From NCBI RefSeq assembly GCF_001677475.2, contig NZ_CP015229.1: DNA of 64,000 nucleotides; one strand, written 5' to 3'. The position numbers and the translations under genes are program-made. Within the stretch, counting starts at the first letter, position 1. Each line of letters begins with the position of its first letter. This document shows positions 3,006 to 43,253 of this stretch, in pieces. The notes beneath the pieces were generated by a model. That model was given only the letters and a program-made list of their open reading frames with translations. It made no database searches and was not told the origin of the DNA. This DNA is from Escherichia coli (GTDB lineage: Bacteria > Pseudomonadota > Gammaproteobacteria > Enterobacterales > Enterobacteriaceae).

Positions 3006-3024
3006 TAGATAAATTTTAGGCAAC

Positions 3025-3103
3025 AAAAAACCCACCAACCTTGAACCGAAATGGCGGGGTTGATGGGCTCCACAAAATGGGGACATCAAAGAAAAGCAGT
3101 GGC
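3025..3103 (-). ncRNA. rybB: sigmaE-dependent small RNA RybB
   Basis: Reverse complement reads GCCACTGCTTTTCTTTGATGTCCCCATTTTGTGGAGCCCATCAACCCCGCCATTTCGGTTCAAGGTTGGTGGGTTTTTT, ending in a GC hairpin plus U-run; lies in the ybjK-ybjL intergenic where rybB is known to sit. Confidence 0.85.
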
Positions 3104-32227: not shown

Positions 32228-32402
32228 GAAAACCCAGTCCTTGCAAAGATGAAGTCGAAATGCGCGATGACACACTACTGAAAGCGGAAGGACGAGTAAA
32301 GTTGCAATTAAAAGGAAATGTTATGCATAAGGAGCAGTAGAGTATTCGTTTTCATTTAAAGATATTCTTGCGCTTTAATTACAAACCGCACCGGTGTTGG
32401 TG

Positions 32403-32533
32403 GCGTCAAAATCGCCGACCCGGTAGCCGTAAGGGATAAGCCGAGGGCACCGCGCAGCGGCGATTTTGTTCGCCAGAGCCCGGGGGGGCAGGGGCGGCGG
32501 CGATTGGCCGCCCCCTGCGCGCTCCCTGCGCCA
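32403..32533. repeat. GC-rich structured intergenic element with nested inverted repeats (unclassified)
   Basis: CAAAATCGCCG...CGGCGATTTTG (11-bp arms) and GCAGGGGCGGC...GCCGCCCCCTGC read directly; motif CGGCGATT recurs three times. Confidence 0.5.
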
Positions 32534-32590
32534 GTGACTATATGTGGCTTAACACATCAAGGAGCGCAACAGGAAGATGAATCAATATAT

Positions 32591-32621
32591 TTAAAAAAGG
32601 CCTGACATTGCGCCAGGCCTT
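32591..32621 (-). terminator. Intrinsic terminator of aqpZ
   Basis: Hairpin AAGGCCTGacattgcgCCAGGCCTT, followed on the minus strand by TTTTTTAA. Confidence 0.7.
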
Positions 32622-32630
32622 CTGCGTTAA

Positions 32631-33326
32631 TTAATTACGCTTTTCCAGCAGGGTCCGGTAAATCAGACCACCGATAATGCCGCCGACAATTGGCACCACC
32701 CAGAAGAACCACAGTTGTTCTAATGCCCAGCCGCCCTGGAAGATAGCAACCGCGGTGCTGCGCGCTGGGTTAACAGAAGTGTTAGTCACCGGAATACTGA
32801 TTAAGTGAATCAGGGTTAAGGCCAGACCAATAGCGATCGGCGCAAAACCTGCTGGAGCGAATTTGTCGGTTGCGCCGTGGATCACCAACAGGAAACCTGC
32901 ACTCAATACCAGTTCAACTACCAGCGCGGAAAGCATGGAATAACCGCCTGGTGAATGCTCGCCATAACCGTTAGAAGCAAAACCGCTGGCTGCCGCGTCA
33001 AAACCCGTTTTACCACTGGCAATTAAATACAGCAGCGCCGCTGCAACAATACCGCCGACAACCTGGGCAATTACGTAGCCAACGACTTCTTTTGCCGGGA
33101 AACGTCCGCCAGCCCATAAACCAATAGTGACCGCCGGGTTAAAATGACCACCAGAAATATGACCAACAGCGAAGGCCATCGTCAGAACGGTCAAACCAAA
33201 TGCCAGCGCCACGCCGGCAAAACCAATGCCTAATTCCGGGAAGCCTGCGGCCAGTACAGCACTACCACAGCCACCAAAAACAAGCCAGAAAGTACCAAAA
33301 CATTCAGCTGCTAATTTTCTGAACAT
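32631..33326 (-). CDS. aqpZ: Aquaporin Z
   Basis: [24 protein letters not shown]; two NPA motifs ([14 protein letters not shown]); 231 aa. Confidence 0.93.
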
Positions 33327-33751
33327 ATCCACCTCAATTAAAAATTGACCCTGTGAAAAATATGGTCGTTTTATAGGGTCGTCGTAAAAAAGTGACGACG
33401 GAAATAATGCGCGGCTATTTTAAAAACGAAGGCGAGTCATTCACCAGATAAATAAATCCAGTAAATTTGATTTAGGGCAACAGCGGGTTGTCCCATATAG
33501 TCATTTGTCTGATTGACAGTGTAGTGCAAGCGAAAGATTTAATCCTTTAGGCGTAATAAAAAATAATTTATCATGCTAATTATTTGATTTTGTTGTTTTT
33601 GCAGGCTTATCAGCAAGAGGGAGTATAACGCGATTATTCGCTCATTTTTCAGACATTTGCCATGCTTAAATGTGATGTCATCACGTATTAGCAAGGCCTT
33701 TCCCGTTATACTGCCAGCGTAAAGGATAAGTCACATATTTCTGGAGGGGAT

Positions 33752-39572: not shown

Positions 39573-39583
39573 TTTTTGAGATA

Positions 39584-39612
39584 AAAATGCCAGCCGATCG
39601 GGCTGGCATTTT
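39584..39612. terminator. Bidirectional terminator between macB and cspD
   Basis: AAAATGCCAGCCgatcgGGCTGGCATTTT perfect hairpin flanked by A/T runs. Confidence 0.75.
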
Positions 39613-39644
39613 GCCTTTAGGATGTACACAATGAGACAGAAGAG

Positions 39645-39869
39645 CTATGCGACTGCCGCTTCTACTTCGACGGGCACAATAACACTGGCGTGATTGCCTT
39701 TTGGCCCCTGGTGGACATCAAACTGAACGGATTGTCCAGCTTTTAGCGTTCTGTAACCATCCATCTGAATGGTGGAATAATGAGCGAAAATATCTTCGCC
39801 GCCGCCTTCAGGGCAGATGAAACCAAACCCTTTGGCATTGTTGAACCACTTAACAGTACCCTTTTCCAT
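39645..39869 (-). CDS. cspD: Cold-shock-like protein CspD
   Basis: ORF trimmed to MEKGTVKWFNNAKGFGFICPEGGGEDIFAHYS (RNP1 motif), 74 aa. Confidence 0.92.
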   Translation of the reverse strand: MEKGTVKWFNNAKGFGFICPEGGGEDIFAHYSTIQMDGYRTLKAGQSVQFDVHQGPKGNHASVIVPVEVEAAVA

Positions 39870-40192
39870 GCTTCGACATCCTTCGCAAATCTTATACAAA
39901 TAAGATGGAATAAACCGGGGTCAGAGAGGGGGGCTGTTCAAAACCTCGCCAACTCTAGAAATACAATTTAGAGAATTAGGGCGAGCCGTCAAGCATTTGA
40001 CAGGGGGCAAGGGGCAGGTATGAATCAAAAATTTGAAGCAGTTAACGCTATTGACAGGAATGTGACAGATGTCGCTGATGCCAACGATAGATGATAGTTA
40101 TCTATCATGTGGAGTAGATTGGTCAGGCAAATAAGCTCTTGTCAGCGGCAGGGCGTTCTGCCGATAACCGTAACCGAAGATGATAACTGACA

Positions 40193-43034: not shown

Positions 43035-43122
43035 GTTCACTGCCGTACAGGCAGCTTAGAAATTCACAGGTAACATACTCCACCCGCCCACCATGTTCAC
43101 TGCCGTACAGACAGATAAAATG
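43035..43122 (+). CRISPR. Orphan type I-F (Ypest-type) CRISPR mini-array: 2 repeats, 1 spacer, no cas genes
   Basis: Repeat 1 GTTCACTGCCGTACAGGCAGCTTAGAAA (43035-43062), 32-bp spacer TTCACAGGTAACATACTCCACCCGCCCACCAT, degenerate repeat 2 GTTCACTGCCGTACAGACAGATAAAATG (43095-43122); AT-rich leader-like region upstream. Confidence 0.8.
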
Positions 43123-43165: not shown

Positions 43166-43253
43166 TGGCGGTGAGGGGGGGATTCGAACCCCCGATACGT
43201 TGCCGTATACACACTTTCCAGGCGTGCTCCTTCAGCCACTCGGACACCTCACC
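43166..43253 (-). tRNA. serW: tRNA-Ser (anticodon GGA)
   Basis: Reverse complement GGTGAGGTGTCCGAGTGGCTGAAGGAGCACGCCTGGAAAGTGTGTATACGGCAACGTATCGGGGGTTCGAATCCCCCCCTCACCGCCA: long variable arm, GGA anticodon, 3' CCA. Confidence 0.92.

Follow-up and report, generated by a model that had tools for sequence, protein, structure and literature searches.

TwoAYGGAY RNAs (Rfam RF01731) are of unknown function (bioRxiv 10.1101/2024.12.11.627843) and were reported by their discoverers to have very long P1 stems of up to 24 bp (Weinberg et al. 2010, PMC2864571). Genomes of gamma-proteobacteria carry it in multiple copies, and one part of the original alignment contains multi-copy Psychromonas sequences with conserved flanks, some of them carrying ACAGGGACGU as the second loop (PMC2864571). 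Enterobacterial spacers also harbor several classes of palindromic repeats, and in Escherichia coli K-12 there are six copies of RSA (150/151 bp), 33 of boxC and hundreds of REP (PMC5172473). Here we analyze a stretch of 64,000 nucleotides of DNA (the window), identified as Escherichia-type by its open reading frames and annotated homologous regions, in which a GC-rich palindromic element lies between lysO and aqpZ. We consider, with a probability of roughly 80%, that this element belongs to a dispersed, low-copy repeat family of Enterobacteriaceae and has undergone an internal deletion, intact copies being TwoAYGGAY-like and the one at this site an inert relic.

TwoAYGGAY is the closest described entity to this repeat family. 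The intact core measures 253-256 nt (anchor search), and the whole unit ca. 330 bp, with recognizable similarity among copies reaching ca. 30-35 nt beyond the left end of the core and ca. 25-40 nt beyond its right end. On one strand the unit consists of a TwoAYGGAY-like domain of ca. 140-160 nt, followed by a 12-bp GC hairpin and then by a terminal stem of 7-9 bp. Like TwoAYGGAY, intact members possess a long closing stem (P1), an inner stem and two hairpins, here with the loops ACAUGGAUGU and ACAGGGAYGU (i.e., AUGGAU in hairpin 1 and AGGGAU or AGGGAC in hairpin 2), and the second loop also occurs in the published Psychromonas sequences of the part of the alignment mentioned above. Intact copies align end to end with the Rfam CM: in K-12 the first ca. 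140 nt cover model positions 1-168 at 30.6 bits (E = 0.006 in a 411-nt search; gathering score 43 bits), with CAAAAUCGCCGAGGCGUUCCCUG and its partner placed in P1, CAGCCCACAUGGAUGUGGGCUG in hairpin 1 and GGGCGCGUUUUACAGGGAUGUUACCUCGCGCCC in hairpin 2, and a second intact E. coli copy reaches 33.1 bits, likewise under the gathering score. A diverged (B-type) sister element, found beside an E. coli-type copy in Pseudocitrobacter, passes the threshold with 49.2 bits and has the same three-part layout, including the downstream 12-bp GC hairpin. The family departs from TwoAYGGAY in that none of its E. coli and Klebsiella copies exceeds 30-33 bits (Klebsiella copies gave no match at E<=1), and in adding two conserved 3' modules outside the Rfam model, i.e., in all copies a GC hairpin, GCAGGGGGCGGC-GGCGAYTG-GCCGCCCCCTGC, followed by a GCGCUCC/GGAGCGC stem around a variable segment. 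The E. coli hairpin sequences had no match in the part of the original TwoAYGGAY alignment examined. As for the window copy, both of its AYGGAY hairpins are deleted while the closing stem survives as an 11-bp P1 base and a 5-bp P0, and it does not match RF01731 (E<=10 locally, E<=0.5 window-wide), so that the Rfam scan suggested in the first-pass annotation places only the intact relatives, below threshold.

Other repeat classes are more distant. RSA/BEE95 may be an older name for the palindromic domain, a comparison made by copy number and length only: both are dispersed, intergenic, enterobacterial and low-copy, and the annotated 150/151 bp (PMC5172473) is near the 140-159 nt of the palindromic domain. 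However, the full family unit is about twice as long, and the six K-12 copies of RSA (2 forward, 4 reverse) compare with three of the family (1 forward, 2 reverse), a blastn count that more diverged copies could escape. REP/BIME, ERIC (IRU) and boxC are, like the family, palindromic spacer repeats, often located between convergent genes and targeted by insertion sequences, and one repeat type may replace another at the same spacer between strains; nevertheless, the family is unrelated to them in sequence, with a much longer unit and a much lower copy number. boxC is a GC-rich repeat of ca. 56 bp with ca. 33 copies in K-12, whereas the GC module of the family, searched alone, occupies a median of three and a maximum of five places per genome even at E<=10. 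The original suggestion of "another class of intergenic repeat (boxC/RSA-like)" was thus right about another repeat class, which proved to be multi-copy and cross-genus, and wrong about boxC, by copy number, and the statement that the element is not REP-like holds, given its three copies and the lack of similarity to the REP in the putP-efeU spacer.

The lysO-aqpZ copy and its deletion

The element was first described as a tract of about 70% GC with two strong inverted repeats, flanked by the aqpZ terminator and the lysO promoter. The composition (72.5% GC in 32403-32533 vs 51% over the whole window) agrees with this description, as does the position, with the aqpZ terminator on one side and the region upstream of lysO on the other (Table 1). 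The first inverted repeat, CAAAATCGCCG/CGGCGATTTTG, was recovered by a repeat finder with 11/11 complementary positions across a gap of 40 nt and represents the base of P1; a perfect 11-nt inverted repeat arises in 3 of 500 composition-preserving shuffles. The second, GGGGCGGC (32491-32498)/GCCGCCCC (32507-32514), was confirmed in the sequence and by the repeat finder as part of the palindrome at 32488-32518, but in the form originally written (GCAGGGGCGGC/GCCGCCCCCTGC) it is imperfect, with four G in the 5' arm and five C in the 3' arm, where other copies have GGGGG; the window GC hairpin contains a one-base bulge because one G of this run is missing. A motif said to be repeated three times, CGGCGATT, does have three occurrences (32410-17 on the minus strand, 32458 and 32498 on the plus strand), yet it is a by-product and not a separate feature, since two of them are the arms of the first palindrome and the third is the GC-hairpin loop. 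A third inverted repeat, GCGCTCC (32519-32525)/GGAGCGC (32561-32567), lies partly beyond 32403-32533 and had been missed, and the element is therefore larger than first delimited, with a core at 32398-32570 and conserved extensions from ca. 32367 to ca. 32595. The left extension is recognizably similar at unrelated loci, the flanks further out being unrelated, and the right one is weakly similar among copies (consensus about AAGATGATGAAGC...).

Table 1 Features of the lysO-aqpZ locus and other matches in the window
Feature	Position	Strand	Basis or remark
hcp	29532-31190	-	ORF list, annotated homologous regions
lysO	31328 to about 32227	-	ORF list, annotated homologous regions
aqpZ	32631-33332	-	ORF list, annotated homologous regions
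ybjD	33752 onward	+	ORF list, annotated homologous regions
Repeat unit, left extension (CTTGCGCTTTAATTACAAACCGCACCGGTGT)	32367-32397	+	multi-copy alignment with flanks
Repeat core, 173 nt here vs 253-256 nt intact	32398-32570	+	anchor search, blastn vs fetched loci
Outermost stem P0, 5' arm TGGCG	32401-32405	+	pairs with 32471-32475; 21-copy structure counts, window fold
Closing stem P1 base, 5' arm CAAAATCGCCG	32407-32417	+	placed in TwoAYGGAY P1 by Rfam alignment
Deletion junction, CCGA microhomology	32415-32418	+	alignment vs long allele
GTAAGGGATAAG, sole GGA motif left in the TwoAYGGAY-like domain	32429-32440	+	sequence, GGA positions
P1 base, 3' arm CGGCGATTTTG	32458-32468	+	repeat finder, Rfam alignment, structure counts
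P0, 3' arm CGCCA	32471-32475	+	window fold, structure counts
Module 2, GC-rich hairpin GCAGGGGCGGC - loop GGCGATTG - GCCGCCCCCTGC	32488-32518	+	
Module 3, stem GCGCTCC/GGAGCGC around a segment of ca. 35 nt varying between copies	32519-32567	+	repeat finder, RNAalifold
Repeat unit, right extension (AGGAAGATGAATCAATATATTTAAA)	32571-32595	+	multi-copy alignment
aqpZ intrinsic terminator (AAGGCCTGGCGCAATGTCAGGCCTT then TTTTTT), outside the repeat	32597-32621	-	
CRISPR-DR4 repeat	43035-43062	+	Rfam
tRNA gene	43169-43253	-	Rfam
RybB, STnc130, naRNA4/REP-type and cspA-thermoregulator-like matches, positions given together	3022-3100, 57852-57986, 15620-15700, 39581-39975	-, -, +, -	

The alignment reveals that the window copy lacks 79 bp that most E. 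coli carry between lysO and aqpZ. The gap runs from just after CAAAATCG to CCGACCCGG, with CCGA at both of its edges in the long allele, and the lost segment contained the upper P1, the inner stem, hairpin 1 (CAGCCCACATGGATGTGGGCTG) and most of hairpin 2 (GGGCGCGTTTTACAGGGATGTTACCTCGCGCCC). What remains is P0, the 11-bp P1 base, one GGGAUAAG motif, the GC hairpin and the terminal stem; the site of GTAAGGGATAAG is the 3' half of the former P1 region, and GGGATAAG is invariant in the alignment of full-length copies (A5). A deletion between the CCGA microhomologies has thereby taken both GGA hairpins and left the base of the closing stem together with the GC hairpin. An 80-nt probe across the junction matched in one piece in 552 of 5426 complete E. 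coli genomes (about 10%), and the short allele is thus a common natural variant, although none of the 5426 genomes is identical to the window over the spacer (best 98.7-98.9%). At least six distinct internal deletions were found across copies in the multi-copy alignment, most of them removing one or both hairpins, which argues that individual copies are dispensable and that the palindromic core is deletion-prone. Coding potential was rejected: internal deletions of 79, 60, 25 and 11 bp are mostly not multiples of three, and the remaining ORFs are only short or spurious.

The plus strand of 32395-32550 folds at -82.9 kcal/mol (z = -2.7). The element lies ca. 140-170 bp upstream of the lysO start codon, and its structured strand, here the plus strand of the window, is antisense to both aqpZ and lysO. 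Neither GC hairpin is followed by a U-run, whichever strand is read, i.e., the element itself does not resemble an intrinsic terminator, and a simple scan in and next to it returned neither a sigma-70-like promoter nor an intrinsic terminator. The K-12 feature table (NC_000913.3) has no annotation at the lysO-aqpZ repeat site, and the literature on the lysO-aqpZ and yohP-dusC spacers yielded nothing beyond a weak GalR prediction that falls outside the element. The whole repeat unit is bracketed by an AT-rich inverted repeat of 12 nt, TTTAAAGATATT/AATATATTTAAA (32355-32366 and 32584-32595; 92% complementary), and in O157-type alleles another, 9-nt inverted repeat, TTAGCATTG/CAATGCTAA, brackets the inverted unit. 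These could be due to chance or linked to the insertion or flipping of the unit.

Elsewhere in the window, an isolated CRISPR-DR4 (type I-F-like) repeat above the Rfam threshold is located ca. 100 bp from a tRNA gene, RybB, STnc130 and a naRNA4/REP-type element were also matched above threshold, and a cspA-thermoregulator-like match stayed below it (40.5 bits vs 78).

Copy number, distribution and conserved structure

The copy-number check by blastn proposed in the first-pass annotation showed the element to be multi-copy. With 32380-32560 as query, 5425 of 5426 complete E. coli genomes matched, at a median of three and a maximum of seven places, and a query with the intact domain at E<=10 reached a maximum of ten places per genome in the same set. 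Apart from lysO-aqpZ, copies are found at unrelated intergenic spacers, i.e., yohP-dusC, putP-efeU and alx-sstT. K-12 MG1655 has three places even at E<=10, of which the lysO-aqpZ and yohP-dusC copies are full-length and the putP-efeU copy is internally deleted. At alx-sstT the repeat is absent from K-12 and present in other strains. There, K-12 holds a different GC-rich palindromic repeat (CTCCCTCTCCC...GGGAGAGGGTCGGGGTGAGGG..., at 547-760 of the fetched spacer locus), one repeat class having been replaced by another; this repeat, of the GGGAGAGGG.../...CCCTCTCCCC type, we take to be boxC-like, and it is unrelated in sequence to the lysO-aqpZ family.

A scan for exact 18-mers, using one genome per species, detected copies in other Escherichia (E. 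albertii, E. whittamii and two unnamed species) and in two Pseudocitrobacter species, and missed Klebsiella owing to point differences. Many exact-word matches in Rhodobacterales and other groups are chance, and one in Providencia is not a copy. The Klebsiella copies were recovered by blastn against PLSDB (one K. pneumoniae chromosome, whose record is labeled a 'plasmid', has 13 places), together with one Citrobacter record; most of the 'plasmid' matches that were inspected appear to be chromosomes or chromosomal fragments, judging from multi-megabase records and chromosomal genes. No copy of the repeat was matched in phage sequences. Identity among E. coli, Pseudocitrobacter and Klebsiella copies is 84-92%. 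In one K. pneumoniae spacer between convergent genes, two direct copies (1077-1329 and 1514-1766 of the locus) are 437 bp apart, and a Pseudocitrobacter spacer contains two elements head to head (1868-2122 on the minus and 2183-2400 on the plus strand of the locus), an arrangement also seen at a second locus. One member of the latter pair is 92% identical to the E. coli type and the other is the diverged sister element above the Rfam threshold, a type nearly absent from E. coli (one partial match). The 92% seems more than would be expected for intergenic DNA between these genera, and suggests that the repeat may have spread horizontally. Copies of the E. coli repeat on low-coverage contigs of Bacillus sp. 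(583 bp) and Pseudobutyrivibrio (432 bp) assemblies are probably E. coli contamination; the Bacillus sp. contig combines a lysO-side left flank with a putP-side right flank, i.e., either a chimeric assembly or an inter-copy recombinant.

The structure of the repeat is under selection, and on one strand. We counted pairs on a curated structure in an alignment of 21 distinct full-length copies (A5), in which standard pairs make up 97.8% of cells (a cell being one sequence at one pair). Changes on both sides are seen in 11 pairs, a number reached by none of 500 shuffles, and sliding the partners by 1-3 columns lowers pairing to 38-46%, with 1-4 two-sided pairs; the copies being related, these changes are not counts of independent events. 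P0/P1 of the intact copies (about 25 pairs) are 98.8% paired with compensatory changes, two of them in the pairs of the P0 5' arm (columns 4-8, partner 155-159). The GC hairpin (helix 9) is 99.6% paired, with compensatory changes in three pairs: C-G to A-U in two pairs of the UTI89-type yohP-dusC copy, also in E1V33, and G-C to A-U in Klebsiella. The terminal stem (helix 10) is 100% paired in the 21 copies, and in hairpin 1 CAGCCCAC/GUGGGCUG becomes CGACGCGC/GCGCGGCG in alx-sstT-type copies and ...CCCGC/GCGGG... in Klebsiella. G.U accounts for 65 cells vs 15 for A.C (11 of these 15 at one loop-closing position), and the minimum free energy of the K-12 unit is -132 kcal/mol on the plus strand vs -114.9 on the complement; the structured strand is thus the TwoAYGGAY-sense strand, corresponding to the plus strand of the core in the window. 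Covariation and the G.U asymmetry in the intact copies suggest a single-stranded nucleic acid, for which RNA is the simplest candidate. An alternative 8-bp pairing of the P1 5' arm with the GC-hairpin loop was discarded, being unsupported by copies with the loop GGCGACTG.

Polymorphism of the spacers and the IS110-family insertion

The lysO-aqpZ spacer exists in at least five forms among E. coli strains: long; 79-bp-deleted; with an inverted element, a different adjoining spacer and no aqpZ terminator hairpin (O157:H7, C311); inverted and deleted (S87); and interrupted by an IS110-family element. The four uninterrupted forms that were compared have in common only the ca. 100 nt adjoining lysO (up to 32328), and the strain with the IS has other sequence on the lysO side of the spacer. 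The yohP-dusC element lies in opposite orientations in K-12 and UTI89, and filled and empty alx-sstT spacers differ by replacement of the whole spacer without any clean insertion. In tandem-gene contexts the element is oriented twice in sense and twice in antisense, and thus has no consistent relation to the neighboring genes.

The IS110-family element (transposase WP_000868863/868, 341 aa) interrupts the repeat precisely within the hairpin-2 loop in E. coli SCU-172 (1229-2616 of the locus) and ECCNB12-2. The insertion point on the complementary strand is GGTAACAT^ATCCCTG, with a possible AT duplication, and the IS is flanked on one side by the aqpZ-side half of the lysO-aqpZ copy and on the other by the dusC-side half of the yohP-dusC copy. 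Such hybrid flanks imply an inversion of ca. 1.3 Mb between the two repeat copies. Among the 5426 E. coli genomes, 173 contain the junction of IS and repeat. IS621 targets REP, and by its insertion site the IS110-family element may likewise target this repeat.

Explanations for the window copy and its intact relatives

In the reading that we favor, the window element is an ordinary object, a decayed copy of a low-copy enterobacterial repeat, probably an inert relic whose hairpin-forming sequence does no more than separate the aqpZ terminator from the upstream region of lysO. This is argued by the loss of the signature hairpins, the antisense orientation relative to the neighbors, the lack of promoter and terminator in the scan, and the free replacement of this spacer elsewhere. 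The remaining stems could affect RNA 3' ends or DNA topology. The first-pass suggestion of a structured RNA or regulatory element thereby fits the intact relatives and fails for the window copy, whose defining hairpins are lost.

Intact copies would act as RNA when transcribed, and our leading guess is that they would offer a CsrA dimer two high-affinity GGA hairpins, 28 nt apart. Sites separated by 28 nt can be bridged by a CsrA dimer. The SELEX consensus of CsrA is RUACARGGAUGU, with ACA and GGA invariant and GGA in a hairpin loop (PMC4347634), and CsrA binding was proposed earlier for TwoAYGGAY on the same grounds (PMC4333381). Hairpin 2 of the intact copies (UUACAGGGAUGU) fits this consensus at 11 of 12 positions, hairpin 1 (CACAUGGAUGU) has ACA, GGA and UGU, and the window copy retains neither. 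In presenting GGA within hairpin loops of this kind, the intact copies are similar to CsrB and CsrC, in which, however, GGA sites are far more numerous than the two or three of each repeat unit. Moreover, the scan identified no promoter or terminator for the family, published CsrA CLIP-seq of K-12 lists no peak for aqpZ, lysO/ybjE, dusC, yohP or putP, and none of the listed K-12 peak sequences contains the repeat hairpin sequences. We therefore regard CsrA-mediated function of the intact copies as tentative, with the odds rather against it, and see no such mechanism for the window copy.

The main alternative, which we regard as less likely, is that the repeat works as DNA, i.e., as a MITE-like mobile element or a recombinase/transposase target whose hairpins form in single-stranded DNA, the similarity to an RNA motif then being secondary and the window copy a decayed insertion. 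The dispersal at 84-92% identity in spacers of several genera, the presence/absence polymorphism at alx-sstT, the two orientations at lysO-aqpZ and yohP-dusC, the tandem and head-to-head pairs, the IS110-family element placed exactly in the hairpin-2 loop in 173 genomes and, for the part of the alignment described above, the conserved flanks of multi-copy Psychromonas TwoAYGGAY would all agree with such a role. However, we detected no target-site duplication, the ends share only a weak inverted repeat (TTGCGCT/AGCGCAA, ca. 7 nt), filled and empty alleles differ by whole-spacer replacement, the copy number is low, and neither an associated transposase nor a phage match was detected. The excess of G.U over A.C also fits RNA better than duplex DNA, even if single-stranded DNA tolerates G.T.

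We consider it improbable that the truncated copy has kept a function in cis, e.g., as an RNA stabilizer, a barrier/insulator between the aqpZ terminator and the lysO promoter or a protein-binding site regulating lysO. The remnant does fold well and is placed close upstream of lysO, and the short allele, found in about 10% of E. coli genomes, is therefore not strongly deleterious. Against this, the spacer beyond 32329 is replaced, inverted, deleted or IS-interrupted among strains while only the ca. 100 nt beside lysO are conserved, the same sequence is present at unrelated genes, neither aqpZ nor lysO is encoded on the structured strand, and promoter and terminator consensus sequences were not found by the scan.

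Membership in boxC or REP/BIME, or a chance GC-rich spacer as the first-pass annotation had allowed for, can be practically dismissed: the sequence is indeed GC-rich, palindromic and intergenic, but three copies per genome compare with 33 of boxC and hundreds of REP in K-12 (PMC5172473), the putative boxC-like repeat of the K-12 alx-sstT spacer is unrelated, and conservation in 5425 of 5426 genomes and in other genera excludes chance.

For the window copy, we retain the relic reading, and its annotation is settled by it: the palindromes are the remains of a repeat and not a regulator of lysO or aqpZ, a REP or a boxC. More speculatively, intact members might be mobile cassettes that add a two-hairpin, CsrA-type module to 3' or 5' UTRs, switched by flips and deletions, with the IS110-family element driving inversions. 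We would give this little credence, yet if true, a post-transcriptional input would be switched on and off strain by strain, and a dedicated IS110-family element would recognize the hairpin-2 loop as its target. The analysis links an unannotated, low-copy repeat of E. coli and Klebsiella to the orphan TwoAYGGAY RNA motif, and K-12, with two intact copies (lysO-aqpZ and yohP-dusC), is a tractable host for testing the function of that motif. Furthermore, the locus provides a natural allelic series within a single spacer (long, deleted, inverted and IS-interrupted), and repeats of this family can seed large chromosomal inversions.
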